Shown: positions 1 through 29,465 of the stretch, piece by piece | How the letters are laid out: each line of letters opens with the position of its first letter | Position numbering within the stretch: the first letter of the stretch is position 1 | Assembly (NCBI RefSeq): GCF_051903065.1 | Contig: NZ_CP178438.1 | Source: Escherichia coli | Lineage (GTDB): Bacteria; Pseudomonadota; Gammaproteobacteria; Enterobacterales; Enterobacteriaceae | Length of the DNA stretch: 64,000 nt | Reading direction: 5' to 3' (one strand) | Notes under the pieces: generated by a model | What the model was told of the DNA's origin: nothing | The model's database searches: none | The model's input: the letters and a program-made list of their open reading frames with translations, nothing else | Program-made: the position numbers and the translations under genes

Positions 1-2271
1 ATGGCCGTTAAAGCCTCCGGGCGTTTTGTCCCTCCGTCAGCATTTGCCGCAGGCACCGGTAAGGCGTTTACCGGTGCTTATGCATGGAACGCGCCACGCG
101 AGGCTGTAGGGCGCGAAAGACCTCTTACACGTGACGAGATGCGTCAGGTGCAAGGTGTTTTATCCACGATTAATCGCCTGCCTTACTTTTTGCGTTCGCT
201 GTTTACTTCACGCTATGACTACATCCGGCGCAATAAAAGCCCGGTGCACGGGTTTTATTTTCTCACATCCACTTTTCAGCGTCGTTTATGGCCGCGCATT
301 GAGCGTGTGAATCAGCGCCATGAAATGAACACCGACGCGTCGTTGCTGTTTCTGGCAGAGCGTGACCACTATGCGCGCCTGCCTGGAATGAATGACAAGG
401 AGCTGAAAAAGTTTGCCGCCCGTATTTCATCGCAGCTTTTCATGATGTATGAGGAACTCAGCGATGCCTGGGTGGATGCGCATGGCGAAAAAGAATCGCT
501 GTTTACGGATGAGGCGCAGGCTCACCTCTATGGTCATGTTGCTGGCGCTGCACGTGCTTTCAATATTTCCCCTCTCTACTGGAAAAAATACCGTAAAGGG
601 CAGATGACCACGAGGCAGGCATATTCTGCCATTGCCCGTCTGTTTAACGATGAGTGGTGGACTCATCAGCTTAAAGGCCAGCGTATGCGCTGGCATGAAG
701 CGTTACTGATAGCTGTCGGGGAGGTCAATAAAGACCGTTCTCCTTATGCCAGTAAACACGCCATTCGTGATGTGCGTGCGCGCCGCCAGGCAAATCTGGA
801 ATTTCTTAAATCGTGTGACCTTGAAAACAGGGAAACCGGCGAGCGCATCGACCTTATCAGTAAGGTGATGGGCAGTATTTCTAATCCTGAAATTCGCCGG
901 ATGGAGCTGATGAACACCATTGCCGGTATTGAGCGTTACGCCGCCGCAGAGGGTGATGTGGGGATGTTTATCACGCTGACCGCGCCGTCAAAGTATCACC
1001 CGACTCGTCAGGTCAGAAAAGGCGAAAGTAAAACCGTTCAGCTTAATCACGGCTGGAACGATGAGGCATTTAATCCAAAGGATGCGCAGCGTTATCTCTG
1101 CCGCATCTGGAGCCTGATGCGCACGGCATTCAAGGATAATGATTTACAGGTCTACGGTTTGCGTGTCGTCGAGCCACACCACGACGGAACGCCACACTGG
1201 CATATGATGCTTTTTTGTAATCCACGCCAGCGTAACCAGATTATCGAAATCATGCGTCGCTATGCGCTCAAAGAGGATGGTGACGAAAGAGGAGCCGCGC
1301 GAAACCGTTTTCAGGCAAAGCACCTTAACCGGGGCGGTGCTGCGGGATATATCGCGAAATACATTTCAAAAAATATCGACGGCTATGCACTGGATGGTCA
1401 GCTCGATAACGATACCGGCAGACCGCTGAAAGACACTGCTGCGGCTGTTACCGCATGGGCGTCAACGTGGCGCATCCCACAATTTAAAACGGTTGGACTG
1501 CCGACAATGGGGGCTTACCGTGAACTACGCAAATTGCCTCGCGGCGTCAGTATTGCTGATGAGTTTGACGAACGCGTCGAGGCTGCTCGCGCTGCCGCAG
1601 ACAGTGGTGATTTTGCGTTGTATATCAGCGCGCAGGGTGGGGCAAATGTCCCGCGCGATTGTCAGACTGTCAGGGTTGCCCGTAGCCCGTCGGATGACGT
1701 TAACGAGTACGAGGAAGAAGTCGAGAGAGTGGTCGGCATTTACGCGCCGCATCTCGGCGCGCGTCATATTCATATCACCAGAACGACGGACTGGCGCATT
1801 GTGCCGAAAGTTCCGGTCGTTGAGCCTTTGACTTTAAAAAGCGGAATCGCCGCGCCTCGGAGTCCTGTCAATAACTGTGGAAAGCTCACCGGTGGTGATA
1901 CTTCGTTACCGGCTCCCACACCTTCTGAACACGCCGCAGCAGTGCTTAATCTGGTTGATGACGGTGTTATCGAATGGAATGACCAGGAGGTCGTGAGGGC
2001 GCTCAGAAGCGCATTAAAACACGGCCTGAGAAGACCAAACCGTCAGCAAAGAAACGGAAGTCCGTTAAAACCGCATGAAATAGCGCCATCGGCCAGACTG
2101 ACCAGGTCGGAACGAATGCAAATTACCCGTATCCGTGTTGACCTTGCTCAGAACGGTATCAGGCCGCAGCGATGGGAGATTGAGACGCTGGCGCGTGGCG
2201 CGACCGTAAATTATGGCGGGAAAGGATTCACGTATCCGGTCGCTGATGAGTGGCCGGAATTTGTAGTATAA
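1..2271 (+). CDS. A: P2-type replication initiation endonuclease gpA (rolling-circle, HUH family)
   Basis: 756-aa ORF starting at position 1; N-terminus MAVKASGRFVPPSAF matches my recollection of P2 gpA; HxH-like motif HWHMMLF and Tyr-rich YIAKYISK segment; followed by cos and Q/P as in P2 prophage order. Confidence 0.9.
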   Translation: MAVKASGRFVPPSAFAAGTGKAFTGAYAWNAPREAVGRERPLTRDEMRQVQGVLSTINRLPYFLRSLFTSRYDYIRRNKSPVHGFYFLTSTFQRRLWPRIERVNQRHEMNTDASLLFLAERDHYARLPGMNDKELKKFAARISSQLFMMYEELSDAWVDAHGEKESLFTDEAQAHLYGHVAGAARAFNISPLYWKKYRKGQMTTRQAYSAIARLFNDEWWTHQLKGQRMRWHEALLIAVGEVNKDRSPYASKHAIRDVRARRQANLEFLKSCDLENRETGERIDLISKVMGSISNPEIRRMELMNTIAGIERYAAAEGDVGMFITLTAPSKYHPTRQVRKGESKTVQLNHGWNDEAFNPKDAQRYLCRIWSLMRTAFKDNDLQVYGLRVVEPHHDGTPHWHMMLFCNPRQRNQIIEIMRRYALKEDGDERGAARNRFQAKHLNRGGAAGYIAKYISKNIDGYALDGQLDNDTGRPLKDTAAAVTAWASTWRIPQFKTVGLPTMGAYRELRKLPRGVSIADEFDERVEAARAAADSGDFALYISAQGGANVPRDCQTVRVARSPSDDVNEYEEEVERVVGIYAPHLGARHIHITRTTDWRIVPKVPVVEPLTLKSGIAAPRSPVNNCGKLTGGDTSLPAPTPSEHAAAVLNLVDDGVIEWNDQEVVRALRSALKHGLRRPNRQQRNGSPLKPHEIAPSARLTRSERMQITRIRVDLAQNGIRPQRWEIETLARGATVNYGGKGFTYPVADEWPEFVV

Positions 2272-2510
2272 GATAGCGCTTCAGGCTGTAATGCATTGTT
2301 TTGTATAGCATACTACATTTTTTGTAACATCTGTTCATGTTTTCTTTTCTATGCGTCATACTACGGCTATGGGTGGTCAGAGAAACAGGTTGCTGCTTAA
2401 ATGTATAAAAAGAGATGCTTTCATTTTTGATGAGATTTGCCATAACGTGGAGTATATATGGTAAAACTTATGAGACATAACATTTATACTATTATTAAAA
2501 AGGAGATTAT

Positions 2511-4178
2511 ATGCTGAGAACTTTTACAGGACAAAATTATAAAGCATACGAAAGCTTTAAGTTAGATTTAAAGCCATTGACAATATTGTTAGGTGCAAAT
2601 AGTTGTGGAAAAAGTGCACTAATTAACTCTTTGTTGATGTTTTCTCAGACAGTTGATTCAATGTCATTGTCTGACTCTGCTCTACGGCTGAATGGACCTA
2701 AAGTGGGAATGGGGGAAGCATTAAATATTATAAAAAATAAAGATGACTCCAAAACACTTAACTTTAGCTTTGATTTTTCTGATAATAGCGTAGTTAAAAA
2801 TGGCATTGATACTCTGAGAAGAGAAACTTTAGAATCATTTGCTATGATTATGCGATTCACTATACAGACAGTAAAAAATAATGATGAGTTGGTCGCGAAG
2901 GCCAATAATTTGATAAATGAATCTTTGAATGCTATTGTTAATTTTGATGAGTTTGAGGAGGCTAAATTAAATATTATTGCTGATAAATTGTGCCAGTTGA
3001 TTATGCTTTTTAGAGATGCTGGCAATAATATTATGTTTAGCCGGGCTACCTCAGAAAACTTACGCAGATTTATATATGAATGCCCATTGAAGAGAATCAA
3101 AGATTGCCTAACTAAAGTTGTTTCTATTTCAGGAAATAAATTGTCTGCATCTAAAATAAGTTATGACTTCAGATATGATAAAAATAAAGGTGTGGTAAAG
3201 GTTTCGAGATTTGTTCTTCTAAATAAGAATGATGAAAGAATAGTTGAACTGTTACCCAAAAAGAATAATGTCGTTGTATTGTCGGATGTTATCCCTCAAG
3301 AAGTATTTAGAGGATGTAAGTCTGATATCTTAGAAATCATGAATCCTTATTCTTTGGGGCTATTCCCTGTCAATGAAGGACGTGGTTTTTATGTTTTTTT
3401 TGGAAATTCCTACAACCCTGTTGTTAACTTTTTGTCACATGTTGTTTCTCTGGGAGTATTAATGCTTTCAAAAATGTTTGATGGCGAAAATGTTAATCAT
3501 GTCAGCCCGTTGAGGGCATTTCCTCAGCGTTATTATTTATTAGATAAAACAGTCAATCATGCTCAGTTAAATTCTGCTGATGGCTCTGAGTTGGCGGAGA
3601 TTCTGAAGAAAAATACAAAAATAACAGAAAACATAAACCTTCTTCTCGCTGAATTTAACTTAGCGGTTGATATAGTTAGAGTTAATGACATAATTCATAA
3701 GATAGTTATAAACCAAGATGCTGTTAATTTAGAATTGACAGATGTAGGGTTTGGAATATCACAAGTGTTGCCTGTCTTGGTTCAAGCTTATTTGTCACCA
3801 AAGGGCTCGATTACAATAATAGAACAACCAGAAATACATTTGCATCCTAAAATGCAGGCATGGTTAACTGACGCATTAATTAAAATATCTATGCAAGAAA
3901 AGAAAATTTTTATTATTGAAACACATAGTGATGCATTAGTTAGACGGATTAGATTAAGAATTGTTGATGAATCAAGCGAACTTACTGAGGACCATGTGGC
4001 AATCTATCATCTTGAGCGAGATGAAGAGGGAACATCAACCTTACTAAATAGAGTGGCTGTGAATTCTGATGGAGATATCACATGGCCAAATGAGTTTATG
4101 GATGTTGAGATTCAGGATACAATTAGAATACAGGAATTAAAGATACAAAAAATAATGAACTCAAAGGGAGTTCATTGA
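2511..4178 (+). CDS. ABC/OLD-type (AAA_15/AAA_21-like) ATPase, cargo gene 1 of A-Q hotspot; candidate defence ATPase (AriA/AbiLi/PtuA-like)
   Basis: 555 aa; Walker A GANSCGKS near N-terminus; Walker B/D-loop-like IIEQPEIHLHP and H-loop-like ETHSD near C-terminus with ~400-aa insertion between; very AT-rich; strong RBS AGGAG upstream. Confidence 0.75.
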   Translation: MLRTFTGQNYKAYESFKLDLKPLTILLGANSCGKSALINSLLMFSQTVDSMSLSDSALRLNGPKVGMGEALNIIKNKDDSKTLNFSFDFSDNSVVKNGIDTLRRETLESFAMIMRFTIQTVKNNDELVAKANNLINESLNAIVNFDEFEEAKLNIIADKLCQLIMLFRDAGNNIMFSRATSENLRRFIYECPLKRIKDCLTKVVSISGNKLSASKISYDFRYDKNKGVVKVSRFVLLNKNDERIVELLPKKNNVVVLSDVIPQEVFRGCKSDILEIMNPYSLGLFPVNEGRGFYVFFGNSYNPVVNFLSHVVSLGVLMLSKMFDGENVNHVSPLRAFPQRYYLLDKTVNHAQLNSADGSELAEILKKNTKITENINLLLAEFNLAVDIVRVNDIIHKIVINQDAVNLELTDVGFGISQVLPVLVQAYLSPKGSITIIEQPEIHLHPKMQAWLTDALIKISMQEKKIFIIETHSDALVRRIRLRIVDESSELTEDHVAIYHLERDEEGTSTLLNRVAVNSDGDITWPNEFMDVEIQDTIRIQELKIQKIMNSKGVH

Positions 4179-4179
4179 T

Positions 4180-5181
4180 ATGCTTTGTGCTGTTTGTTTG
4201 TGTCCTGAATTTGTTGCTGCTAATATTTCTGATGTTAAAGTTTTTAGCGGTTTTTTTATTGAAACCATTGTTAATGGTGAAAATGAGTTGATTCTTGATG
4301 CTGATGGAAAAATTCGCTTAGGTTATTTAAAGTCTTGCGGAAACAACAAGGATTCTTTTTTGTTTTTTAAGAAGTGGGAGTCTGAGTTATCTAAAGCTCC
4401 TTCAGGCAAGATATTGCGTACACCAGTGCCGAATAGTTCTGAGGATATTAAGGATATAGTTGTTTGTGCAGTTGCTAATGCAGCCACTACTTTTGATAAG
4501 CATATCGTAGTGTTAGATAATAATAGTTACTCTGGATATATTGATGAATTAATCAGGCAAAGGATTAATTTGTTAAATCTTAATAGTATAAGCTTAATAT
4601 CAAAGGATGGTCGAGTGCAGCGTCCTTTGAATTTTATAAAGTTTGATAGTGATTTATCTTGGGTGCTTCAAAGATTGGGGCGTCGCTCTGCTAAAGGATA
4701 TGGTGAAGATGATTTTAATGATTTTATACGGGATATGTTATTAGCTAAGAATTATGAGGTAAAAGATCAAACTAGAGAGGGAGAGTCTCAATCTGGTAAA
4801 AGTGCGGGTGAATTAGATCTTGTTATTGAAGATAAAGGAAATCTATTTGCTATAATAGAAGCATTGATTTTAAAATCTCTAGATCAAGCTAACATATTAA
4901 AGCATTATTCAAAGCTAATTAGTAACTATAATCCTATTAATGTTAAACGCTTGTTTTTAATTGCTTATTATACTGGTGCAAAATTTGATGCTTGGTGTGA
5001 GAGATACATTGATTATCTAAAAGAGATTACTCCGGTAGATATTGGTGTAGAATCTCATGAGATAGTTGGGATTAAAGAAGTGGAGACTCCATATATAGGT
5101 TTGAGAAAAATTGAACATCATTTTAGATATGCGGGAGAACATTATTTTTGTGTTCATTATGCAGTCAAGATGGCTCGGTGA
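4180..5181 (+). CDS. Partner protein of hotspot ATPase, putative nuclease effector (PD-(D/E)xK-like or TOPRIM/DUF4435-like)
   Basis: 333 aa; ATG 1 nt after upstream TGA (translational coupling); motifs GELDLVIEDKG (D-x3-E-x-K) and IETIV..LDADG (E...DxD); AT-rich. Confidence 0.6.
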   Translation: MLCAVCLCPEFVAANISDVKVFSGFFIETIVNGENELILDADGKIRLGYLKSCGNNKDSFLFFKKWESELSKAPSGKILRTPVPNSSEDIKDIVVCAVANAATTFDKHIVVLDNNSYSGYIDELIRQRINLLNLNSISLISKDGRVQRPLNFIKFDSDLSWVLQRLGRRSAKGYGEDDFNDFIRDMLLAKNYEVKDQTREGESQSGKSAGELDLVIEDKGNLFAIIEALILKSLDQANILKHYSKLISNYNPINVKRLFLIAYYTGAKFDAWCERYIDYLKEITPVDIGVESHEIVGIKEVETPYIGLRKIEHHFRYAGEHYFCVHYAVKMAR

Positions 5182-5193
5182 TGTTTAATATGA

Positions 5194-5218
5194 ATGCACC
5201 TATAGGGTGCATCATTTT
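5194..5218 (+). terminator. Putative terminator of the hotspot operon
   Basis: Hairpin ATGCACC-TATA-GGGTGCAT followed by CATTTTG directly after the stop at 5181. Confidence 0.45.
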
Positions 5219-5318
5219 GCATGTTTAAATACGTTCTCTATGTATGTGCGCTAGGCTTGACTGGCGCGCTTGTACTATGTTTATGCAACTGCATTAAAAC
5301 CGACCCATGAAGCGGGCG

Positions 5319-5337
5319 GGCGAGGCGGGGAAAGCAC
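5319..5337. other. cos: P2-type cos site (19-nt cohesive end sequence)
   Basis: GGCGAGGCGGGGAAAGCAC matches the P2 cohesive-end sequence as I recall it; lies between the A-side cargo and portal gene Q, where P2 cos sits. Confidence 0.6.
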
Positions 5338-5478
5338 TGCGCGCTGGCGGTGGTGCTGATTTTATTTTTTCAGCGTCTGAGCGCGTCGTGATGGCGTTTA
5401 GTCGGCCTGCCGGGGCGTTGGTGTGTCTGCGGGGTGTTTTGTACAGTGGCGAACGTGTGAGGGCGTGATGACGGGGTG

Positions 5479-5501
5479 TAAAAAAGCCGCCCGCAGGCGG
5501 C
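5479..5501 (-). terminator. Rho-independent terminator downstream of Q (minus strand)
   Basis: Minus-strand hairpin GCCGCC-TGCG-GGCGGC followed by a T-run, immediately 3' of the Q stop. Confidence 0.5.
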
Positions 5502-5506
5502 GATGT

Positions 5507-6541
5507 TCAGCCGTTGTCAGTGTCCAGTGAGTAGTTTTTAAATCGGATGACCTCCTGACCGAGCCAGCCGTTTATCTCGCGGATCCTGTCCTGTAACGGG
5601 ATAAGCTCATTGCGGACAAAGACCTTTGCTACTTTCTCAATATCGCCCAGCGACCCGACGTTCTCCGGCTTGCCGCCCATCAACTGAAAGGGGATGCGGT
5701 GCGCGTCCAGCAGGTCTGCGGCACTGGCTTTTTTGATATTAAAAAAATCGTCCTTCGTCGCCACTTCACTGAGCGGGATAATTTTAATGCCGTCGGCTTT
5801 TCCCTGCGGGGCATAGAGAAACAGGTTTTTAAAGTTGTTGCGGCCTTTCGACTTCACCATGTTTTCGCGAAGCATTTCGATATCGTTGCGATCCTGCACG
5901 GCATCCGTGACGTACATGATGTATCCGGCATGTGCGCCGTTTTCGTAATACTTGCGGCGGAACAGAGTGGCCGACTCATTCAGCCAGGCAGAGTTAAGGG
6001 CGCTGAGATATTCCGGCAGGCCGTACAGCTCCTGATTAATATCCGGCTCCAGCAGGTGAAACACGGAGCCGGGCGCGAAAGGTGTCGGCTCGTTGAAGGA
6101 CGGCACCCACCAGTAAACATCCTCTTCCACGCCACGGCGGGTATATTTTGCCGGTGAGGTTTCCAGTCTGATGACCTTACCGGTGGTGCTGTAACGCTTT
6201 TCCAGAAACGCATTGCCGAACACCAGAAAATCCAGCACAAAGCGGCTGAAATCCTGCTGGGAAAGCCACGGGTGCGGAATAAACGTTGAAGCCAGAATAT
6301 TACGTTTGACGTAAATCGGTGAGCTGTGATGTACGGCAGCACGCAGGCTTTTTGCCAGACCGGTAAAGCTGACCGGTGGCTCATACCATCTGCCGTTACT
6401 GATGCACTCGACGTAATCCAGAATGTCACGGCGGTCGAGTACCGGCACCGGTTCACCAAAGGTGAATGCCTCCATTTTCGGGGCGCTGGCGGTCATTTTT
6501 TTTGCCGCTAGTCGCGGTGTTTTCCCTTTTTTCTTGCTCAT
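5507..6541 (-). CDS. Q: Portal protein gpQ
   Basis: 344 aa, size and sequence character of P2 Q; overlaps start of P; conserved position next to cos. Confidence 0.9.
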   Translation of the reverse strand: MSKKKGKTPRLAAKKMTASAPKMEAFTFGEPVPVLDRRDILDYVECISNGRWYEPPVSFTGLAKSLRAAVHHSSPIYVKRNILASTFIPHPWLSQQDFSRFVLDFLVFGNAFLEKRYSTTGKVIRLETSPAKYTRRGVEEDVYWWVPSFNEPTPFAPGSVFHLLEPDINQELYGLPEYLSALNSAWLNESATLFRRKYYENGAHAGYIMYVTDAVQDRNDIEMLRENMVKSKGRNNFKNLFLYAPQGKADGIKIIPLSEVATKDDFFNIKKASAADLLDAHRIPFQLMGGKPENVGSLGDIEKVAKVFVRNELIPLQDRIREINGWLGQEVIRFKNYSLDTDNG

Positions 6542-8313
6542 CAGTAAAACTCCAGAATGGTGGATGTCAGCGGAGTGCTGATACCCGCGGTGAGTGGCTC
6601 ATTTAACAGGGCGTGCATGGTCGCCCAGGCGAGGTCGGCGTGGCTGGCTTCCTCGCTGCGGCTGGCCTCATAGGTGGCACTGCGTCCGCTGCTGGTCATG
6701 GTCTTGCGGATAGCCATAAACGAGCTGGTGATGTCGGTGGCGCTGACGTCGTATTCCAGACAGCCACGGCGGATGACGTCTTTTGCCTTGAGCACCATTG
6801 CGGTTTTCATTTCCGGCGTGTAGCGGATGTCGCGCGCGGCGGGATAGAACGAGCGCACGAGCTGGAACACGCCGACACCGAGGCCGGTGGCATCAATACC
6901 GATGTATTCGACGTTGTATTTTTCGGTGAGTTTGCGGATGGATTCAGCCTGGGTGGCAAAGTCCATGCCTTTCCACTGGTGACGCTCAAGTATTCTGAAT
7001 TTGCCACCGGCCACCACCGGCGGTGCCAGCACCACGCATCCGGCACTGTCGCCACGGTGTGACGGGTCGTAACCAATCCAGACCGGGCGGGAGCCGAACG
7101 GATTCGCGGCAAACGGCGTATAGTCTTCCCATTCTTCCAGCGTGTCGACCATGCAGCGTTGCAGCTCCTCGAACGGGAATACCGACGCCTTGTCGTCAAC
7201 AAATTCACACATGAACAGGTTTTTAAAATCGTCGGCGCTGTTTTCGCGTTTAAGCTGCTCAATGTCGAACAGCGTGCAGCCACCTTTCAGGGCGTCCTCA
7301 ATGGTGACAATCTGCCGCCACTGGCCGTCCGCACAGAGAAGCCCACCGGCAAGGGCGTTATGACTGACGTCGATTTCCACGCGTTCGGCGGCGCTGGCGC
7401 GTCCCCGGTTGAACAGTTCACCCGACCAGAACGGATAGGCGTCGTGCGCCAGCGTGGACGGGGTGGAGAAATAGGTCGAGCGCAGGTGACTCTGTGAGGC
7501 CATACCTGATGCCACCTTACGCAGTACCTGAAAATTCGGGATCCAGAAAATCTCATCGACGTACAGGTCGCCGTTATGGCTCTGCGCGGTGTTGGAGTTG
7601 GTGCCGAGAAAAATCAGTTTTGCGCCGTTATTGCCCAGGACAATCGGGTCACCGGTCAGGTCAACGTCAACCAGCCGGGCAAAGGCGATGATGTATTCGC
7701 GGAACACATACGCCTGCGTTTTACTGGCCGACAGAAAAATCTGGTTATGACCGGTTTTCAGGGCGCGCAGCAGCGCCTCGCGGGAAAAATAAAACGTCGC
7801 GCCAATCTGGCGGGATTTCAGGATATCGCGGATGCGGTGCTCAAGCCCGGCGCGATACCAGTGCAACTGATAGTCGAAAGACTGCTCAAAGAAAATCTGC
7901 TCCAGCTTTTCGATGGCCTCGTCACTGAAAAAATTCTTTTTCGGTTTGCGACGCCCGCCTTTGTTGCGGTTAGCGACGTTCGGATTAAGGTCTGCCTCGT
8001 TGCCGGTCTGACTGTAGCGGTTGACCCGCGCCAGCCGTTCAATCTGGCGTCCCAGCAGGTCAATTTCCTTGAAGTCACCGCCGGTTTTCTGCGGTTTGAT
8101 GATGAGCTGGGTCAGCCGCGCTTCCAGACTCATTTCGACACGGCTGATGGGGGCAACGCTGTCCCAGCCGTCGCGCTGTTTCCAGCTCTGCACCGTCGGG
8201 CGTTTCATCTGCAACATGGCGGCAATCTGCGGCACGGAAAACCCCTGCCAGTACAGCAGCGCCGCCTGACGACGCGGGTCGTGTAAAAGAGTGGTGTCTG
8301 TGGTGATGGTCAT
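6541..8313 (-). CDS. P: Terminase large (ATPase) subunit gpP
   Basis: ORF 6541..8343; start taken at MTITTDTTLL (ATG at 8311-8313 on minus strand) as in P2 gpP; divergent from O. Confidence 0.88.
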   Translation of the reverse strand: MTITTDTTLLHDPRRQAALLYWQGFSVPQIAAMLQMKRPTVQSWKQRDGWDSVAPISRVEMSLEARLTQLIIKPQKTGGDFKEIDLLGRQIERLARVNRYSQTGNEADLNPNVANRNKGGRRKPKKNFFSDEAIEKLEQIFFEQSFDYQLHWYRAGLEHRIRDILKSRQIGATFYFSREALLRALKTGHNQIFLSASKTQAYVFREYIIAFARLVDVDLTGDPIVLGNNGAKLIFLGTNSNTAQSHNGDLYVDEIFWIPNFQVLRKVASGMASQSHLRSTYFSTPSTLAHDAYPFWSGELFNRGRASAAERVEIDVSHNALAGGLLCADGQWRQIVTIEDALKGGCTLFDIEQLKRENSADDFKNLFMCEFVDDKASVFPFEELQRCMVDTLEEWEDYTPFAANPFGSRPVWIGYDPSHRGDSAGCVVLAPPVVAGGKFRILERHQWKGMDFATQAESIRKLTEKYNVEYIGIDATGLGVGVFQLVRSFYPAARDIRYTPEMKTAMVLKAKDVIRRGCLEYDVSATDITSSFMAIRKTMTSSGRSATYEASRSEEASHADLAWATMHALLNEPLTAGISTPLTSTILEFY

Positions 8314-8379
8314 GAATACCTCGCCGTGATGAATACACGGCAAGGCTACTGAGTCGCGCCCTGCGATTCGCTAAGGTGC

Positions 8380-8389
8380 TGTTGTGTCA
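8380..8389 (+). promoter_or_regulatory. Late-promoter-associated motif TGTTGTGTCA upstream of O (P_O region; Ogr-dependent by analogy)
   Basis: Motif about 100 bp upstream of O start; same decamer family recurs upstream of V and FI. Confidence 0.45.
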
Positions 8390-8486
8390 GTGATAAGCCA
8401 TCCGGGACTGATGGCGGAGGATGCGCATCGTCGGGAAACTGATGCCGACATGTGACTCCTCTAATCACTATTCAGGACTCCTGACA

Positions 8487-9341
8487 ATGGCAAAAAAAGT
8501 CTCAAAATTCTTTCGTATCGGCGTTGAGGGTGACACCTGTGACGGGCGTGTCATCAGTGCGCAGGATATTCAGGAAATGGCCGAAACCTTTGACCCGCGT
8601 GTCTATGGTTGCCGCATTAACCTGGAACATCTGCGCGGCATCCTGCCTGACGGCATTTTTAAACGTTATGGCGATGTGGCCGAACTGAAGGCCGAAAAGA
8701 TTGATGACGATTCGGCGCTGAAAGGCAAATGGGCGCTGTTTGCGAAAATCACCCCGACCGATGACCTTATCGCGATGAACAAGGCCGCGCAGAAGGTCTA
8801 TACCTCAATGGAAATTCAGCCGAACTTTGCCAATACCGGCAAATGTTATCTGGTGGGGCTGGCCGTCACCGATGACCCGGCAAGCCTTGGCACGGAATAC
8901 CTGGAATTCTGCCGCACGGCAAAACACAATCCCCTGAACCGCTTCAAATTAAGCCCTGAAAATCTGATTTCAGTGGCAACGCCCGTTGAGCTGGAATTTG
9001 AAGACCTGCCTGAAACCGTGTTCACCGCCCTGACCGAAAAGGTGAAGTCCATTTTTGGCCGCAAACAGGCCAGCGATGATGCCCGTCTGAATGACGTGCA
9101 TGAAGCGGTGACCGCTGTTGCTGAACATGTGCAGGAAAAACTGAGCGCCACTGAGCAGCGCCTCGCTGAGATGGAAACCGCCTTTTCCGCACTTAAGCAG
9201 GAGGTGACTGACAGGGCGGATGAAACCAGCCAGGCATTCACCCGCCTGAAAAACAGCCTCGACCACACCGAAAGTCTGACCCAGCAGCGCCGCAGCAAGG
9301 CCACCGGCGGTGGCGGTGACGCCCTGATGACGAACTGCTGA
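8487..9341 (+). CDS. O: Capsid scaffolding protein gpO
   Basis: Start at MAKKVSKFFRIG (ATG 8487) inside ORF 8421..9341; 284 aa as P2 gpO. Confidence 0.88.
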   Translation: MAKKVSKFFRIGVEGDTCDGRVISAQDIQEMAETFDPRVYGCRINLEHLRGILPDGIFKRYGDVAELKAEKIDDDSALKGKWALFAKITPTDDLIAMNKAAQKVYTSMEIQPNFANTGKCYLVGLAVTDDPASLGTEYLEFCRTAKHNPLNRFKLSPENLISVATPVELEFEDLPETVFTALTEKVKSIFGRKQASDDARLNDVHEAVTAVAEHVQEKLSATEQRLAEMETAFSALKQEVTDRADETSQAFTRLKNSLDHTESLTQQRRSKATGGGGDALMTNC

Positions 9342-9400
9342 CCGGCGTCAGTCAGTCCGGGAAAACCTTCACGATTAACCCTTAATTTTCAGGAAAAACT

Positions 9401-10474
9401 ATGCGCCAGGAAACCCGCTTTAAATTTAATGCTTACCTGTCCCGTGTTGCCGAATTGAACGGCATCGACGCCGGTGATGTGTCGAAAAAATTCACCGTTG
9501 AACCGTCGGTCACCCAGACCCTGATGAACACCATGCAGGAGTCCTCTGACTTTCTGACCCGCATCAACATTGTGCCGGTCAGCGAAATGAAAGGGGAAAA
9601 AATTGGTATTGGTGTCACCGGCTCCATCGCCAGCACCACCGACACCGCCGGTGGCACCGAGCGTCAGCCGAAGGACTTCTCGAAGCTGGCGTCAAACAAG
9701 TACGAATGCGACCAGATTAACTTCGATTTTTATATCCGCTACAAAACGCTGGACCTGTGGGCGCGTTATCAGGATTTCCAGCTCCGTGTCCGTAACGCCA
9801 TTATCAAACGCCAGTCCCTTGATTTAATCATGGCCGGTTTTAACGGCGTGAGGCGTGCCGAAACCTCTGACCGCAGCAGTAACCCGATGCTGCAGGATGT
9901 GGCGGTCGGCTGGCTGCAGAAATACCGCAATGAAGCTCCGGCGCGCGTGATGAGCAAGGTCACTGACGAGGAAGGGCACACCACCTCTGAGGTCATCCGC
10001 GTGGGTAAGGGCGGTGATTATGCCAGCCTTGATGCACTGGTGATGGATGCGACCAACAACCTGATTGAGCCGTGGTATCAGGAAGACCCTGACCTTGTGG
10101 TGATTGTGGGACGTCAGCTACTGGCGGACAAGTATTTTCCCATCGTCAACAAGGAGCAGGACAACAGCGAAATGCTGGCCGCTGACGTCATCATCAGCCA
10201 GAAACGCATCGGCAACCTGCCAGCGGTACGCGTCCCGTACTTCCCGGCTGATGCGATGCTCATCACGAAGCTGGAAAACCTGTCCATCTACTACATGGAT
10301 GACAGCCATCGCCGCGTGATTGAGGAAAACCCGAAACTCGATCGCGTGGAGAACTACGAGTCAATGAACATTGATTACGTGGTGGAGGACTACGCCGCCG
10401 GTTGTCTGGTGGAAAAAATTAAGGTCGGTGATTTCTCCACACCGGCTAAAGCGACCGCAGAGCCGGGAGCGTAA
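9401..10474 (+). CDS. N: Major capsid protein gpN
   Basis: 357 aa, P2 gpN size and position. Confidence 0.9.
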   Translation: MRQETRFKFNAYLSRVAELNGIDAGDVSKKFTVEPSVTQTLMNTMQESSDFLTRINIVPVSEMKGEKIGIGVTGSIASTTDTAGGTERQPKDFSKLASNKYECDQINFDFYIRYKTLDLWARYQDFQLRVRNAIIKRQSLDLIMAGFNGVRRAETSDRSSNPMLQDVAVGWLQKYRNEAPARVMSKVTDEEGHTTSEVIRVGKGGDYASLDALVMDATNNLIEPWYQEDPDLVVIVGRQLLADKYFPIVNKEQDNSEMLAADVIISQKRIGNLPAVRVPYFPADAMLITKLENLSIYYMDDSHRRVIEENPKLDRVENYESMNIDYVVEDYAAGCLVEKIKVGDFSTPAKATAEPGA

Positions 10475-10477
10475 CCG

Positions 10478-11221
10478 ATGACGAGTCCCGCACAGCGCCA
10501 CATGATGCGGGTCTCGGCAGCGATGACCGCGCAGCGGGAAGCCGCCCCGCTGCGACATGCAACTGTCTATGAGCAGATGCTGGTTAAGCTGGCCGCAGAC
10601 CAGCGCACACTGAAAGCGATTTATTCAAAAGAGCTGAAGGCCGCGAAAAAACGCGAACTGCTGCCGTTCTGGTTGCCGTGGGTGAACGGCGTGCTGGAGC
10701 AGGGCAAAGGTGCACAGGATGACATTCTGATGACGGTCATGCTGTGGCGTCTGGATACCGGCGATATTGGCGGTGCGCTGGAGATTGCCCGTTATGCCCT
10801 GAAGTACGGTCTGACCATGCCGGGTAAACACCGCCGTACCCCGCCGTACATGTTCACCGAGGAGGTGGCGCTCGCGGCCATGCGCGCCCACGCTGCCGGT
10901 GAGTCTGTGGATACCCGCCTGCTGACGGAGACCCTTGAACTGACCGCCACGGCTGACATGCCTGATGAAGTGCGCGCAAAGCTGCACAAAATCACCGGTC
11001 TGCTTCTGCGTGATGGTGGTGATGCCGCCGGTGCGCTGGCTCACCTGCAACGTGCGACACAGCTCGACTGTCAGGCAGGTGTCAAAAAAGAGATTGAACG
11101 ACTGGAGCGGGAGCTGAAACCGAAGCCGGAGCCGCAGCCCAAAGCGGCCACCCGCGCCCCGCGTAAGACCCGGAGCGTGACACCGGCAAAACGTGGACGC
11201 CCGAAAAAGAAAGCCAGTTAA
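10478..11221 (+). CDS. M: Terminase small (endonuclease) subunit gpM
   Basis: 247 aa, position after N, basic C-terminus. Confidence 0.88.
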   Translation: MTSPAQRHMMRVSAAMTAQREAAPLRHATVYEQMLVKLAADQRTLKAIYSKELKAAKKRELLPFWLPWVNGVLEQGKGAQDDILMTVMLWRLDTGDIGGALEIARYALKYGLTMPGKHRRTPPYMFTEEVALAAMRAHAAGESVDTRLLTETLELTATADMPDEVRAKLHKITGLLLRDGGDAAGALAHLQRATQLDCQAGVKKEIERLERELKPKPEPQPKAATRAPRKTRSVTPAKRGRPKKKAS

Positions 11222-11320
11222 CAACCGAATGCGCCCCGCGCCAGGGCGGCACGCCGGTCAGTGTGGGTGAATCACCTGACACTGTACCGGCGTCCACCGC
11301 CCGACTTTTCTGAGGTAGTC

Positions 11321-11830
11321 ATGATGACGCTGATTATTCCGCGAAAGGAGGCTCCCGTGTCCGGTGAGGGTACGGTGGTCATCCCGCAACCGGCAGGCGA
11401 CGAGCCGGTGATTAAAAACACGTTCTTTTTTCCCGATATCGACCCGAAGCGCGTCCGGGAACGTATGCGCCTTGAGCAGACCGTCGCCCCCGCCCGTCTG
11501 CGTGAGGCCATCAAGTCAGGCATGGCGGAGACGAATGCGGAGCTGTACGAGTACCGCGAACAGAAAATTGCCGCCGGTTTTACGCGTCTGGCTGACGTCC
11601 CGGCAGACGATATCGACGGTGAAAGCATCAAGGTTTTTTACTACGAGCGCGCCGTGTGTGCGATGGCGACCGCGTCGCTTTATGAGCGTTATCGCGGCGT
11701 GGATGCCAGTGCGAAAGGCGACAAGAAGGCCGACAGCATTGACAGCACCATTGATGAACTGTGGCGGGATATGCGCTGGGCGGTGGCGCGTATCCAGGAC
11801 AAGCCGCGCTGCATCGTGAGTCAAATCTGA
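11321..11830 (+). CDS. L: Head completion/stabilisation protein gpL
   Basis: Start at MMTLIIPRKEAP (ATG 11321) inside ORF 11261..11830; 169 aa. Confidence 0.85.
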   Translation: MMTLIIPRKEAPVSGEGTVVIPQPAGDEPVIKNTFFFPDIDPKRVRERMRLEQTVAPARLREAIKSGMAETNAELYEYREQKIAAGFTRLADVPADDIDGESIKVFYYERAVCAMATASLYERYRGVDASAKGDKKADSIDSTIDELWRDMRWAVARIQDKPRCIVSQI

Positions 11831-12033
11831 TGAAGACCTTTGCGCTACAGGGCGACACGCTCGACGCCATTTGTGTCCGGTATTACGGGCGCACTGAGGG
11901 CGTGGTCGAGGCCGTGCTCGCCGCAAATCCGGGACTGGCTGAACTGGGCGCGGTGCTGCCACACGGCACCGCCGTCGAACTGCCCGACGTTCAGACCGCG
12001 CCCGTGGCTGAAACTGTCAATCTGTGGGAGTAA
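11830..12033 (+). CDS. X: Tail protein gpX
   Basis: 67 aa MKTFALQGDTLDAI; ATG overlaps L stop. Confidence 0.8.
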   Translation: MKTFALQGDTLDAICVRYYGRTEGVVEAVLAANPGLAELGAVLPHGTAVELPDVQTAPVAETVNLWE

Positions 12034-12036
12034 CGC

Positions 12037-12318
12037 ATGACAGCAGAAGAAAAAAGCGTCCTGTCGCTTTTCATGATTGGGGTGCTGATTGTTGTCGGCA
12101 AGGTGCTTGCCGGTGGTGAACCCATCACCCCGCGTCTGTTTATCGGGCGCATGTTGCTCGGTGGTTTTGTCTCGATGGTTGCCGGTGTTGTTCTGGTGCA
12201 GTTTCCTGACCTGTCACTGCCTGCGGTGTGCGGCATCGGCTCCATGCTGGGTATCGCCGGTTATCAGGTGATTGAGATTGCCATTCAGCGCCGCTTTAAG
12301 GGCAGGGGGAAACCGTAA
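12037..12318 (+). CDS. Y: Holin gpY
   Basis: 93 aa with hydrophobic transmembrane segments, directly precedes endolysin. Confidence 0.85.
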   Translation: MTAEEKSVLSLFMIGVLIVVGKVLAGGEPITPRLFIGRMLLGGFVSMVAGVVLVQFPDLSLPAVCGIGSMLGIAGYQVIEIAIQRRFKGRGKP

Positions 12319-12815
12319 TGCCGGTTATTAACACGCATCAGAATATCGCCGCCTTTCTCGACATGCTGGCCGTGTCCGAAGGGACGGCGAACCATCCGCT
12401 GACGAAAAACCGGGGCTATGACGTGATAGTCACCGGACTGGACGGAAAGCCGGAAATTTTCACCGACTACAGTGACCACCCGTTCGCACATGGCCGACCG
12501 GCGAAAGTGTTTAACCGTCGCGGTGAAAAATCCACGGCATCCGGTCGCTATCAGCAGCTTTACCTGTTCTGGCCGCACTACCGCAAACAGCTTGCCCTGC
12601 CGGATTTCAGTCCGTTGTCACAGGACAGACTCGCCATTCAGTTGATCCGCGAACGCGGTGCACTGGATGACATCCGGGCGGGACGCATTGAGCGCGCCAT
12701 TTCACGCTGTCGCAATATCTGGGCGTCCCTGCCGGGTGCCGGTTACGGTCAGCGTGAGCATTCACTGGAAAAACTGGTCACCGTCTGGCGTACCGCTGGC
12801 GGCGTACCGGCTTAA
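12318..12815 (+). CDS. K: Endolysin (lysozyme) gpK
   Basis: 165 aa, P2 K-like sequence. Confidence 0.88.
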   Translation: MPVINTHQNIAAFLDMLAVSEGTANHPLTKNRGYDVIVTGLDGKPEIFTDYSDHPFAHGRPAKVFNRRGEKSTASGRYQQLYLFWPHYRKQLALPDFSPLSQDRLAIQLIRERGALDDIRAGRIERAISRCRNIWASLPGAGYGQREHSLEKLVTVWRTAGGVPA

Positions 12816-12829
12816 ACGGAGTAAACACC

Positions 12830-13255
12830 ATGAAGAAATTATCCCTTTCACTGATGCTGAACGTGTCGCTGGCGCTGATGCTGGCACTGTCCCTGATTTA
12901 CCCGCAGAGCGTGGCCGTCAGTTTTGTCGCCACCTGGGCGATTCTGGCGACGGTTATCTGTGTGGTTGCCTGTGGTGTCGGCGTGTATGCCACTGAGTAT
13001 GTACTGGAGCGCTACGGGCGGGAGCTGCCGCCGGAATCGATGGTCGTGAAGATTGTCACGTCGCTGTTTTTGCAGCCGGTGCTGTGGCGCAGACGGGCGG
13101 TGGGTCTGGTGGTGATGGTGGCGACGTTTATCTCGCTGGTCGCTGCCGGGTGGATTTTTACCGCACTGATTTATCTCGTGGCATCGCTGTTTTTCCGGCT
13201 GATACGTAAAGCCTGTCGTCAGCGTCTTGAGGGGCGGGAACTATGTCAAAGCTGA
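12830..13255 (+). CDS. lysA: Lysis accessory membrane protein LysA
   Basis: 141 aa, multiple hydrophobic helices, position after K. Confidence 0.8.
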   Translation: MKKLSLSLMLNVSLALMLALSLIYPQSVAVSFVATWAILATVICVVACGVGVYATEYVLERYGRELPPESMVVKIVTSLFLQPVLWRRRAVGLVVMVATFISLVAAGWIFTALIYLVASLFFRLIRKACRQRLEGRELCQS

Positions 13256-13668
13256 TGATTGTGCTGGTCGTGTTGTTATCGCTGGCGGTGACCGGTCTGT
13301 TTCTGGTGAAACACAAAAATGCCAGCCTGCGCGCCTCGCTGGACAGGGCGAACAACGTCGCCAGCGGTCAGCAGACGACCATCACCATGCTGAAAAACCA
13401 GCTTCATGTTGCCCTTACCAGGGCAGACAAAAACGAGCTGGCGCAGGTGGCACTGCGTCAGGAGCTGGAGAACGCCGCGAAGCGTGAAGCACAGCGCGAG
13501 AAAACCATCACGAGGTTACTCAATGAAAACGAAGATTTTCGCCGCTGGTACGGTGCTGACCTGCCTGATGCTGTGCGCCGGTTGCACCAGCGCCCGGCCT
13601 GCGCCGACGCCAGTGATTGTCCACAACGCCTGCCCGAAAGTGAGTCTTTGCCCGATGCCGGGCAGTGA
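13243..13668 (+). CDS. lysB: i-spanin LysB (Rz-like)
   Basis: 141 aa, N-terminal TM helix then coiled-coil-like region. Confidence 0.8.
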   Translation: MSKLMIVLVVLLSLAVTGLFLVKHKNASLRASLDRANNVASGQQTTITMLKNQLHVALTRADKNELAQVALRQELENAAKREAQREKTITRLLNENEDFRRWYGADLPDAVRRLHQRPACADASDCPQRLPESESLPDAGQ

Positions 13669-13813
13669 CCCAGAGAAGAACGGCGATTTAAGTGCCGATA
13701 TCCGGCAGCTTGAGAACGCGCTGGCACACTGTGCCAGCCAGATAAAAATGATTAAACACTGTCAGGACGAAAACGATGCTCAAACCCGACAGCCTGCGCA
13801 GGGCGCTGACTGA
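13523..13813 (+). CDS. lysC: o-spanin lipoprotein LysC (Rz1-like), embedded/overlapping in lysB in +1 frame
   Basis: MKTKIFAAGTVLTCLMLCAGC: signal peptide with lipobox LCAGC; overlaps lysB 3' end in a different frame. Confidence 0.75.
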   Translation: MKTKIFAAGTVLTCLMLCAGCTSARPAPTPVIVHNACPKVSLCPMPGSDPEKNGDLSADIRQLENALAHCASQIKMIKHCQDENDAQTRQPAQGAD

Positions 13814-14243
13814 TGCCGTCACGGTGCTGAAAACCAGTCCAGAGATGCTGCGGATATTCGTGGATAACGGGAGTATTGCTTCCACACTGGCGACGTCGCT
13901 GTCATTCGAAAAGCGTTACACGCTCAATGTGATTGTGACCGACTTTACCGGTGATTTTGACCTGCTCATCGTGCCGGTGCTGGCGTGGCTGCGGGAAAAT
14001 CAGCCCGACATCATGACCACCGACGAAGGCCAGAAAAAGGGCTTCACGTTTTATGCAGACATCAACAATGACAGCAGCTTTGATATCAGTATCAGCCTGA
14101 TGCTGACCGAGCGCACGCTGGTCAGTGAGGTTGACGGTGCGCTGCATGTGAAGAATATCCCGGAACCTCCGCCGCCGGAGCCGGTCACCCGCCCGGTGGA
14201 GCTTTATATCAATGGCGAACTGGTGAGCAAGTGGGATGAATGA
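13776..14243 (+). CDS. R: Tail completion protein gpR
   Basis: 155 aa, P2 gpR size and position. Confidence 0.85.
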   Translation: MLKPDSLRRALTDAVTVLKTSPEMLRIFVDNGSIASTLATSLSFEKRYTLNVIVTDFTGDFDLLIVPVLAWLRENQPDIMTTDEGQKKGFTFYADINNDSSFDISISLMLTERTLVSEVDGALHVKNIPEPPPPEPVTRPVELYINGELVSKWDE

Positions 14244-14694
14244 GTTTAAGCGTTTTGAAGACCGGCTGACCGGACTGATTGAATCGCTGTCACCGTCAGG
14301 GCGTCGGCGACTGAGCGCCGAACTGGCGAAACGTCTGCGGCAGAGTCAGCAGCAGCGAATTAAATTACAAAAAGGCCCGGATGGTACGCCGTATGTACCG
14401 AGAAAAAACCAGCCAGTGCGAAATAAGAAAGGCCGGATAAAGCGGGAAATGTTTGTGAAATTACGCACTAACCGGTTTATGAAAGCAACAGGTAGCGAGA
14501 GTGCGGCGGTGGTGGAGTTTGCCAGCGGAGTGCAACGAATTGCGCGAGTACATCAATTAGGGCTTAAGGATAAGCCGGGGCGTAATAGTGCTGTGGTGGA
14601 ATATCCTGTTCGTGAGTTATTTGGTTTTGACAAGGAATCTATACAATTGATAGAAAGGGAGTTATTAGTGATTCTATCGAAAGATGTTATATGA
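14236..14694 (+). CDS. S: Tail completion protein gpS (3' end AT-rich, possibly chimeric)
   Basis: 152 aa; N-terminus MNEFKRFEDRLTGL P2 S-like; last ~35 codons are AT-rich and join the downstream cargo gene. Confidence 0.8.
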   Translation: MNEFKRFEDRLTGLIESLSPSGRRRLSAELAKRLRQSQQQRIKLQKGPDGTPYVPRKNQPVRNKKGRIKREMFVKLRTNRFMKATGSESAAVVEFASGVQRIARVHQLGLKDKPGRNSAVVEYPVRELFGFDKESIQLIERELLVILSKDVI

Positions 14695-15446
14695 GACGGG
14701 TGTTTATGGATGAAAAGTTTACTATTTTGAGAAAAAGAGTAAAGCACTCTCAAAAGAAAGTTATGGATTGTATTATTGCTGACCATAATGCTGATATATG
14801 TGTGTTATGCGGGAGTCCTGACGATATTACTCGTGAGCACATTATTCCTCAGTGGGCCTTTGAGTCAAATGCTGAAAAATCTTTAATTAATAAAAAGAAT
14901 AATCAGTCAACTCATTACATTAAAGCCACTGTACCAGCATGCAGAGTGTGCAATTCTGATTTGCTGGGAGTGTTTGAGTATAACCTGAAGAAATTTCTTA
15001 CGGAAAAGAGGGGAGAGGAGTTAACAGATTATGAGTATGATTGCATCATATGGTGGTTGCAATACATGGGTTTTAAGTTGCAATTAATGGATTTGCGGAA
15101 CCGCTTTCTCAGGTATAAAGGTGGTGATTATATCCCGTTCCTTGCAAACTTCCCGGTTGCAATGTTTTGGGGGAATGTCGATACGACGCCGGGGGATGTC
15201 TTCAGGATTATACGAAAATCGCGACGCAATCTGATGTCGAAATGGAAGGATAAAAAACATAATTCTTTGATGGTTTTTGAAACATCAAACAAGAGTTTTC
15301 ATTTCTTTCATAAGGTTGATGAATTTATTTTTATTGAAATGCCTCTGGTTAAGAAGGCGTTTTTCTTCTTTTTTAATAAAGAATTTGACAGCCATGATTT
15401 AGCTCATGAGGAGTGTATGAAGATTATAGAGAAGTGCTACAACTAA
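14691..15446 (+). CDS. HNH-motif nuclease-like cargo protein between S and V (P2 orf30 position); candidate defence or accessory gene
   Basis: 251 aa; CVLCGSPDDITREHIIPQW ... PACRVCNSD (CxxC...H...CxxCN His-Me finger pattern); strongly AT-rich; start may instead be ATG at 14706. Confidence 0.6.
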   Translation: MRRVFMDEKFTILRKRVKHSQKKVMDCIIADHNADICVLCGSPDDITREHIIPQWAFESNAEKSLINKKNNQSTHYIKATVPACRVCNSDLLGVFEYNLKKFLTEKRGEELTDYEYDCIIWWLQYMGFKLQLMDLRNRFLRYKGGDYIPFLANFPVAMFWGNVDTTPGDVFRIIRKSRRNLMSKWKDKKHNSLMVFETSNKSFHFFHKVDEFIFIEMPLVKKAFFFFFNKEFDSHDLAHEECMKIIEKCYN

Positions 15447-15455
15447 TATTTATTA

Positions 15456-15465
15456 TGTTGTGTCA
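15456..15465 (+). promoter_or_regulatory. Late-promoter-associated motif TGTTGTGTCA upstream of V (P_V region), part of palindrome TGTCACAGCTGACA
   Basis: ~68 bp upstream of V start; same motif as upstream of O and FI. Confidence 0.45.
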
Positions 15466-15523
15466 CAGCTGACAGAATCCTCCATGATTGCTGCTGGTAT
15501 CGTCCAGCGGCATCCTTCCCGTT

Positions 15524-16159
15524 ATGAACACTCTCGCAAATATTCAGGAACTCGCGCGCGCACTGCGCAACATGATTCGTACCGGCCTTGTCGTCGAAAC
15601 CAACCTTAAAGCCGGTCGCTGCCGTGTGCAGACCGGCGGCATGTGCACCGACTGGCTTCAGTGGCTGACCCATCGCGCCGGACGTTCGTGCACATGGTGG
15701 GCACCTTCCGTGGGGGAGCAGGTGCTGATTCTGGCCGTGGGCGGTGAACTTGACACGGCGTTTGTTCTGCCGGGGATTTATTCCGGCGATAACCCTCCGC
15801 CGTCTGCGTCGGCGGATGCCCTGCATATCCGTTTCCCTGACGGGGCGGTGATTGAGTATGAACCCGAAACCAGTGCACTTACGGTAAGCGGAATTAAAAC
15901 GGCCAGCGTGACGGCTTCTGATTCTGTTACCGCCACGGTGCCGGTGGTCATGGTGAAAGCATCAACCCGCGTCACCCTGGACACACCGGAGGTGGTCTGC
16001 ACCAACAGGCTGATTACCGGCACGCTGGAAGTGCAGAAGGGCGGGACGATGCGCGGCAACATTGAACACACCGGCGGTGAACTCTCATCAAACGGTAAGG
16101 TACTTCATACCCATAAACACCCCGGCGACAGCGGCGGCACAACAGGGGGACCTCTATGA
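15524..16159 (+). CDS. V: Baseplate spike/assembly protein gpV
   Basis: Start at MNTLANIQELARALRNM (ATG 15524) inside ORF 15488..16159. Confidence 0.88.
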   Translation: MNTLANIQELARALRNMIRTGLVVETNLKAGRCRVQTGGMCTDWLQWLTHRAGRSCTWWAPSVGEQVLILAVGGELDTAFVLPGIYSGDNPPPSASADALHIRFPDGAVIEYEPETSALTVSGIKTASVTASDSVTATVPVVMVKASTRVTLDTPEVVCTNRLITGTLEVQKGGTMRGNIEHTGGELSSNGKVLHTHKHPGDSGGTTGGPL

Positions 16160-16503
16160 CTGCGCGTTATCTCGGAATGAATCGCAGTGATGGCCTGACT
16201 GTCACTGACCTTGAGCATATCAGCCAGAGTATCGGCGATATCCTGCGCACACCGGTCGGCTCGCGGGTGATGCGTCGTGATTACGGCTCGTTGCTGGCGT
16301 CAATGATTGACCAGCCGCAGACCCCGGCGCTTGAGTTGCAGATTAAGGTCGCCTGTTACATGGCGGTGCTGAAATGGGAACCCCGCGTCACCCTGTCATC
16401 CGTCACCACTGAGCGCAGTTTTGACGGGCGAATGACGGTCACGTTAACCGGCCAGCACAACGACACCGGCCAGCCACTTTCGTTAACCATTCCTGTGAGT
16501 TGA
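16156..16503 (+). CDS. W: Baseplate protein gpW
   Basis: 115 aa, position. Confidence 0.88.
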   Translation: MTARYLGMNRSDGLTVTDLEHISQSIGDILRTPVGSRVMRRDYGSLLASMIDQPQTPALELQIKVACYMAVLKWEPRVTLSSVTTERSFDGRMTVTLTGQHNDTGQPLSLTIPVS

Positions 16504-16507
16504 AACC

Positions 16508-17416
16508 ATGCCGATTATCGACCTGAACCAGCTACCCGCACCGGATGTGGTTGAGGAGCTGGACTTTGAAACCATTCTTGCCGAACGCAAGGCGACACTG
16601 ATTTCCCTTTACCCGGAAGACCAGCAGGAGGCGGTCGCCCGTACCCTGACGCTGGAATCTGAGCCTCTCGTCAAACTGCTGGAGGAAAATGCTTATCGTG
16701 AGCTTATCTGGCGTCAGCGTGTGAATGAGGCCGCACGGGCGGTGATGCTGGCCTGTGCTGCCGGTAATGACCTTGATGTGATTGGTGCCAATTACAACAC
16801 CACGCGCCTGATTATCACCCTGGAAGATGATTCGACCATCCCGCCGACACCGGCAGTGATGGAATCTGACACGGATTATCGTCTGCGTATTCAGCAGGCG
16901 TTTGAAGGTTTAAGCGTCGCCGGGTCGGTGGGGGCCTATCAGTATCATGGTCGCAGTGCCGACGGGCGTGTCGCGGATATTTCTGTAACCAGTCCGTCTC
17001 CGGCCTGCGTCACCATCTCTGTGCTGTCACGTGAAAATAACGGCGTCGCATCCGAAGACCTGCTGGCCGTGGTGCGTAACGCCCTTAATGGTGAGGACGT
17101 CAGACCGGTGGCCGACCGCGTGACCGTGCAGTCTGCCGCCATCGTTGAATACCAGATAAACGCCACGCTTTACCTTTACCCTGGTCCCGAAAGCGAACCC
17201 ATACGCGCTGCTGCCGTGAAAAAACTGGAAGCGTACATCACGGCACAGCACCGGCTGGGGCGCGACATCCGTCTGTCTGCCATTTATGCCGCTTTGCATG
17301 TGGAAGGCGTGCAGCGTGTCGAACTGACTGCACCGCTGGCCGACATCGTGCTCAACAGTACGCAGGCGTCTTTCTGTACCGAATACCGCGTCGTGACCGG
17401 AGGCTCGGATGAGTGA
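16508..17416 (+). CDS. J: Baseplate protein gpJ
   Basis: 302 aa, position. Confidence 0.88.
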   Translation: MPIIDLNQLPAPDVVEELDFETILAERKATLISLYPEDQQEAVARTLTLESEPLVKLLEENAYRELIWRQRVNEAARAVMLACAAGNDLDVIGANYNTTRLIITLEDDSTIPPTPAVMESDTDYRLRIQQAFEGLSVAGSVGAYQYHGRSADGRVADISVTSPSPACVTISVLSRENNGVASEDLLAVVRNALNGEDVRPVADRVTVQSAAIVEYQINATLYLYPGPESEPIRAAAVKKLEAYITAQHRLGRDIRLSAIYAALHVEGVQRVELTAPLADIVLNSTQASFCTEYRVVTGGSDE

Positions 17417-17939: not shown

Positions 17940-17949
17940 GTGAGGAATA

Positions 17950-19827: not shown

Positions 19828-19830
19828 GTA

Positions 19831-20358: not shown

Positions 20359-20457
20359 GTTGTATGAGCTCTGGTGTGAGCTTACATATCTATGGCACAG
20401 AGTAAAGCCTAATCTGACAGTCCGTTCTGTGCCAGTAGCGGACGTTTGAATAAATTA

Positions 20458-22611: not shown

Positions 22612-22732
22612 TTTCATACATAAACCATGCTCCCGCATGTCCGCATTTCGCTCAAAGCAGACTGTCAGATTTGATAGCGTTTGGGCTATGTAAACTGTCA
22701 GTCGGAAAATGAGTGTGTGCAAATCAGGACAG

Positions 22733-22760
22733 GCGGGCGAATTGCCCGCATTTTCTTTAT
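22733..22760 (+). terminator. Rho-independent terminator after the G-FI cargo genes
   Basis: GCGGGC-GAATT-GCCCGC followed by TTTTCTTTAT. Confidence 0.6.
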
Positions 22761-22762
22761 CT

Positions 22763-22772: not shown

Positions 22773-22854
22773 CCACTGACCAGCCAGGTCAAATGGCGTC
22801 TCATGCACTGCCCAACAGAAAATAGTTGCACCCATTAACCACGGAGTTAAACGG

Positions 22855-29457: not shown

Positions 29458-29465
29458 TTACAAAC

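Follow-up and report, generated by a model that had tools for sequence, protein, structure and literature searches.

The 19-nucleotide sequence at positions 5319-5337 of the analysed DNA (64,000 nucleotides, hereafter referred to as the window) lies next to two genes of foreign composition in a P2-like prophage; this raises the question whether the sequence is the packaging site of the element and, if so, what its position implies for the adjoining cargo. The window is part of an Escherichia coli chromosome: over positions 30000-54000 it matches the pflB-ycaO-rpsA-msbA region of several strains at 100% identity, and a P2-collinear prophage begins before position 1 and ends at approximately 29563. 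On the basis of sequence comparison, positions 5319-5337 very probably represent the cos cleavage site of this chromosomal P2-type (Peduovirus) prophage, which looks complete.

The sequence GGCGAGGCGGGGAAAGCAC is read directly from the plus strand at 5319-5337 and is the single match on both strands of the 64-kb window with up to three mismatches allowed (0.02 matches expected from shuffled sequences); the chance of an exact 19-mer was calculated by our own arithmetic for 128,000 positions as approximately 128,000/4^19, i.e. about 5e-7. All 19 positions are identical to the features "cosL; left cohesive end" (bases 1-19) and "cosR; right cohesive end" (bases 33575-33593) of the P2 reference (NC_001895/AF063097), and the first 19 bases of P4 (NC_001609) are the same; it is this identity to the annotated P2 cosL/cosR and the P4 left end by which positions 5319-5337 (no strand assigned) are designated the 19-nt cohesive-end sequence and cos cleavage core, and the 19/19 agreement places the site, as to its cohesive-end sequence, among those of the P2/P4/186 type (Peduoviridae). 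The BLASTN match to P2 has base 1 of the phage as its exact starting point, at window position 5319, and extends over 9.1 kb at 97% identity, while the terminal 48 bases of P2 align to window positions 5290-5337 with 46 matches. Several other phage records have their termini at the same points in the BLAST comparison: OU784549/NC_070904 and S164 start or end at window position 5319, whereas those of L-413C, P37, MET_P1_103_31, vB_YpM_476B and fiAA91-ss (the last with an annotated cosR) end at 5337.

The position of the site conforms to that of P2/P4/186-type cos sites as well: it is located beyond the 3' end of Q and beside tQ, the intrinsic terminator of the P-Q operon (5486..5501, minus strand; detected by a terminator scan and homologous to the annotated tQ of P2 at 160-181), with P and M nearby. 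The portal protein gpQ (5507..6541, minus strand; Pfam Phage_portal) is full length with 98.5% amino acid identity to P2 Q, the terminase large subunit gpP, which acts at cos (6544..8313, minus strand; Pfam Terminase_6N/6C/Terminase_5), is full length with 99.8% identity to P2 P, and the terminase small subunit gpM (10478..11221, plus strand) is full length with 98.8% identity to P2 M; with Q, P and M intact in the vicinity, the site thus has its cognate machinery beside it. The first-pass annotation had taken the 19-mer for the P2 cohesive end, had located it in the A-Q intergenic region and had placed the packaging site right next to the A-side cargo. The alignment to the P2 reference cos, which has now been run, upholds the first of these claims (the reference does not differ at any of the 19 positions), and the last one is equally correct, as cos adjoins the cargo that follows gene A; the second is accurate in so far as the site does lie between A and Q, but the interval is not a bare gap, since 3 kb of cargo separate the site from A. 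The actual gap comprises 325 bp, from the stop of the cargo gene ORF333 (5181) to the stop of Q (5507).

The sequence conservation is not confined to the 19-mer. The circularised cos junctions of eight elements, the window, P2, P4, 186 and Klebsiella, Erwinia and Salmonella peduoviruses among them, were aligned; in this alignment a core is kept from approximately 37 bp left of the 19-mer (ATGCAACTGCATTAAAACC...AAGCGGGCG) to 7 bp right of it, corresponding to window positions ~5282-5344 (~62 bp). Matching core limits (5283-5344) were obtained by BLAST against distant phages, and homology to other P2-like phages begins at 5276-5284. By its conserved flanks in the eight-junction alignment, the window site again belongs to the P2/P4/186 type. 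Judged from the aligned sequences, the extent of the core agrees with the 55-bp cos sequence with 19-nt ends for which a passage of PMC2231350 quotes Ziermann and Calendar.

The two flanks differ markedly in length. The left cos flank, which would become the right end of the virion DNA (5283..5318, no strand assigned), consists of TGCATTAAAACCGACCCATGAAGCGGGCG and a few bases upstream and is kept in P2, P4, 186 and the Klebsiella, Erwinia and Salmonella peduoviruses; the right flank TGCGCGC, the future virion left end (5338..5344, no strand assigned), occurs as (T/C)GCGCGC in all eight aligned junctions. Directly after position +7 right of the 19-mer, P4 parts from P2 in the junction alignment, which argues that the requirements of the P2 terminase reside mostly on the virion right-end side. 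Two bases of the left flank in the window deviate from P2; the same bases are present in 186 and in the isolate vB_EcoM-12474III, and these variants are thus regarded as functional variation.

A hairpin in the left flank (CCGCCC...GGGCGG, terminator-like, minus strand) was considered as a conserved structure and rejected: its base pairs are disrupted, and not compensated, by substitutions found in the window, in 186 and in other phages, and the hairpin-like flank is consequently read as a protein-recognition sequence. An Rfam scan of positions 5100-5560 yielded no RNA family, and a repeat scan around cos detected nothing but short, probably chance repeats. A 53-amino-acid open reading frame across cos (5307-5468) was likewise discarded as a gene, because its start codon is missing in 186 and the virion DNA would split the frame. 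Within 5312-5345, the seven bases 5' of the predicted nicks agree at five of seven positions between the top (GCGGGCG^G) and the bottom strand (GCGCGCA^G), a weak two-fold symmetry such as a dimeric nicking enzyme would be expected to use. Further to the right, the element CAGCGTCTGAGCGCGTCGTGATGGCG (~5365-5396, i.e. 47-72 bp right of cos) is kept in P2, 186 and the Klebsiella and Salmonella peduoviruses and is not found in P4; from its absence in P4 it would be dispensable for packaging by the P2 terminase.

The mechanism by which such a site is used is known for the family and would, by analogy, apply to the present prophage as follows. The prophage would excise and replicate as a circle, and the terminase composed of gpM and gpP (encoded within 6 kb) would recognise the ~55-62 bp core, i.e. 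~36 bp on the left, the 19-mer and 7 bp on the right; in the presence of proheads, the enzyme would cut closed circular monomers at cos, closed circles being the packaging substrate (PMC2231350). The nicks are predicted between 5318 and 5319 on the top strand and between 5337 and 5338 on the bottom strand, with the polarity taken from the note in the 186 record ("top strand cut at 5' end and bottom strand cut at 3' end"), and this staggered cleavage, to which the P2 record annotations and the phage records with termini at 5319 or 5337 also point, would leave 19-nt 5' overhangs in the present prophage. The resulting linear genome would have the order Q, P, O, N ... ogr, att, int, C, cox, B, A, ORF555, ORF333 and the 36-bp flank; its left end would open with the portal and terminase genes, and after ejection the ends would anneal and be ligated to restore the circle. 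P2-type prophages are not SOS-inducible. The site fixes both the ends of the virion genome that the prophage would make and the right boundary of the cargo cassette, approximately 36 bp from the nick.

The cassette itself extends from 2262 to ~5282 (~3 kb) and differs in its G+C content from the backbone (31-35% versus 52-59%); in the nucleotide alignment, P2 homology stops at 2261 and restarts at 5290. Its left anchor is the replication protein gpA (1..2271, plus strand; Pfam Phage_GPA), which shows 97% amino acid identity to P2 A over residues 1-754. The first cargo gene, ORF555 (2511..4178, plus strand), encodes an AAA_15/AAA_21 ATPase according to Pfam and equals ORF555 of P2-EC5 (AM157364); it has a Walker A motif, its best PADLOC matches were NsnB, HEC-03B, PDC-M55A and AriA-like, and none of its reported hits was a TOPRIM domain. 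The second, ORF333 (4180..5181, plus strand), has a predicted two-domain nuclease-fold structure with the conserved residues D213 and E227 in its sequence, and searches of Pfam, PADLOC, NCBIfam and PHROGs gave no family match for it; its stop codon ends at 5181, 137 bp from the predicted top-strand nick, and is followed by a terminator-like hairpin (5194..5212, plus strand), a candidate from a consensus scan alone, 106 bp before that nick. Domain content and the modelled fold suggest both genes to be putative defence genes.

The cassette has been recorded before: it is 99.6% identical to the GenBank entry AM157364 ("Bacteriophage P2-EC5 proviral ORF555 and ORF333", E. coli ECOR5), and supplementary file 6 of PMC9122126, which comprises hotspot gene arrangements, lists both proteins (WP_024249463 and WP_032259585) as "AAA_15/AAA_21 + hypothetical". 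According to Rousset et al. 2022 (PMC9122126), the gpA-gpQ hotspot of P2-like phages adjoins cos; the present locus has the properties of this hotspot, namely a cassette of foreign composition between gpA and cos/gpQ and an arrangement catalogued for the locus. It is thus because the A-to-Q interval is a documented defence/cargo hotspot of P2-like phages that cos is found beside variable cargo. According to PMC9122126, the hotspot cargo genes presumably exert their action from a resident prophage. Among complete E. coli genomes, the cos-proximal end of the query was present in 2155 of 5426, and just five of these 2155 contained the cargo. The closest E. coli genome with respect to the cargo is PSJ-12 (99.6%; NZ_AP027622.1, 1270874-1286108), in which the P2-like remnant is rearranged and truncated: capsid, M, L and a partial X border directly on the segment from cox to A, after which come the cargo, Q, a truncated P, int and pflA. 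With the cargo present in this remnant and in the present prophage, the cassette occurs in decayed and intact prophages alike.

After cos cleavage, positions 2262-5282 would constitute the last ~3 kb of the linear molecule, and the first-pass annotation was right in placing the cargo at the far right of the packaged linear DNA; old, tin and orf91 of P2 hold the equivalent right-end place. From this geometry it had further been concluded that the cargo would be one of the last parts of the genome to reach a new host cell. The entry order is nothing that a sequence can show, and we regard this reading as doubtful: the claim is unsupported, and the direction may be reversed. In its favour, the cargo does indeed lie in the outermost ~3 kb on the right, the cos core common to P2 and P4 is skewed to the right-end side (~36 bp versus 7 bp), and by analogy to cosB of lambda, where the terminase-bound end is packaged first, the right end could go into the capsid first and leave it last. 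However, the terminase genes occupy the left end, an arrangement shared with lambda, whose DNA is packaged from left to right, and circularisation needs both genome ends inside the cell. In electron microscopy by Chattoraj and Inman in 1974, the right end of P2 DNA was reportedly attached to the tail, in which case the cargo would be among the first DNA to enter. A passage of PMC3367193, which cites Chattoraj and Inman (1974), states for P2/P4 that the trailing packaged end is held in the tail; the cargo would then come last only if packaging of P2 DNA started with the right end, and a literature search for the P2 DNA end that is packaged last or attached to the tail retrieved just a general statement of the trailing end in the tail. 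In lambda, it is the last-packaged right end that is linked to the tail, but strict ejection polarity is disputed even for this phage, as in a 2023 study either end of lambda DNA could leave first (PMC10287942). Moreover, the cargo of P4 is located on the other side of the same cos: given the same terminase, core and orientation with variable genes at the opposite position, entry order cannot be a design rule common to both.

That the adjacency to cos matters in itself, be it that cohesive ends, laid bare by the terminase or shortly after ejection, seed recombination which swaps the cassettes, or that the entry order gives P2-type (right) and P4-type (left) cargo opposite timing, is a proposal to which we attach little probability. 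The swapping of cargo by cohesive-end-seeded recombination has already been raised as speculation by Rousset et al. 2022 (PMC9122126); if the end-entry order held, P2-type and P4-type cargo would be timed oppositely relative to the remaining genome. The cos site and the cargo arrangement are already known, and no new biology is raised by their occurrence here; the value of the assignment lies in annotation, where it also shows the cargo to be a P2 hotspot arrangement that had been catalogued earlier.

The assignment as the cos site of a packageable prophage has to be weighed against the possibility that the sequence is a relic in a defective element that can no longer be packaged. The rearranged, truncated remnant of PSJ-12 and the fact that the window does not reach the left third of the prophage, which includes the int-C-cox-B segment, are compatible with this; on the whole it is improbable, since gpA and the 26 late-region proteins encoded from Q to ogr all have their full length, with 59-100% amino acid identity to P2, replacements are confined to known variable slots, and an attR junction is present (~29546-29563). 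The collinearity with P2 is evident from the aligned segments, in addition to the terminal 48 bases: P2 28034-30294 (gene A) corresponds to window positions 1-2261, P2 1-9139 to 5319-14460 (97%), P2 10308-15361 to 15524-20446, and P2 17433-24342 to 22640-29545; the first base of the window coincides exactly with the ATG of gene A (P2 base 28034).

Other variable slots of the prophage are occupied by different genes. The P2 orf30 slot (14461-15523) is replaced by an open reading frame of 251 amino acids (14691-15446, plus strand) with no match in Pfam or PADLOC, and the tail gene S beside it is 59% identical to P2 S versus more than 95% for its neighbours. The Z/fun slot of P2 (20447-22639) holds other cargo, a frame of 317 amino acids (20527-21480) without a domain and a second one of 278 amino acids (21775-22611) with an Mrr_cat restriction-endonuclease domain. 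The right prophage junction (attR, in the region 29546-29584) is situated approximately 20 bp inside the 5' end of pflA, and the host sequence is resumed at 29564 within this 5' end; the main part of the gene has to be located past the left prophage end and thus outside the window. The annotation of PSJ-12 shows a longer pflA beside the phage integrase, which suggests that the phage supplies a replacement N-terminus.

A chance match or an origin from a P4-type satellite, for which only the identical 19-mer of P4 could be adduced, is practically negligible in view of the chance expectation of ~5e-7, the P2-type rather than P4-type right flank past +7, the neighbouring P2 genes A and Q, and the lack of a second cos-like site in the window.

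In comparison with the known systems, the cos site of this prophage is closest to that of P2: the 19-mer is identical, the adjoining 9.1 kb to the right are 97% identical, the position near the Q terminator is equivalent and the terminase is alike. It differs from P2 in two left-flank bases (CCGACCCAT versus CCGCCCCGT) and in the cargo on the left, which comprises ORF555 and ORF333 on the plus strand in the window and orf91, tin and old in P2 (tin and old on the minus strand). The P4 site resembles that of the window in the identical 19-mer, ~31-37 bp of the left flank and six of the seven right-flank bases (YGCGCGC), and is cut by the helper's terminase (PMC2231350; PMC9122126); unlike the window, it diverges fully past +7, and its variable genes gop, beta and cII (bases 247-2540) flank cos on the left-end side. 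With the variable genes on the left-end side in P4 and on the right in the P2 type, the cargo would be carried at opposite ends of the packaged molecule. The phage 186 (NC_001317) shares the site architecture with 19-nt 5' ends and the left-flank variants with the window, whereas its 19-mer differs at two positions (GGCGTGGCGGGGAAAGCAT). From the gpA-gpQ (TO region) hotspot described in PMC9122126 and AM157364 the locus shows no material difference, since location, low G+C content and protein pair are all shared. Indeed, the juxtaposition of cos and cargo is the published standard architecture of these phages and not a special feature of the present element.
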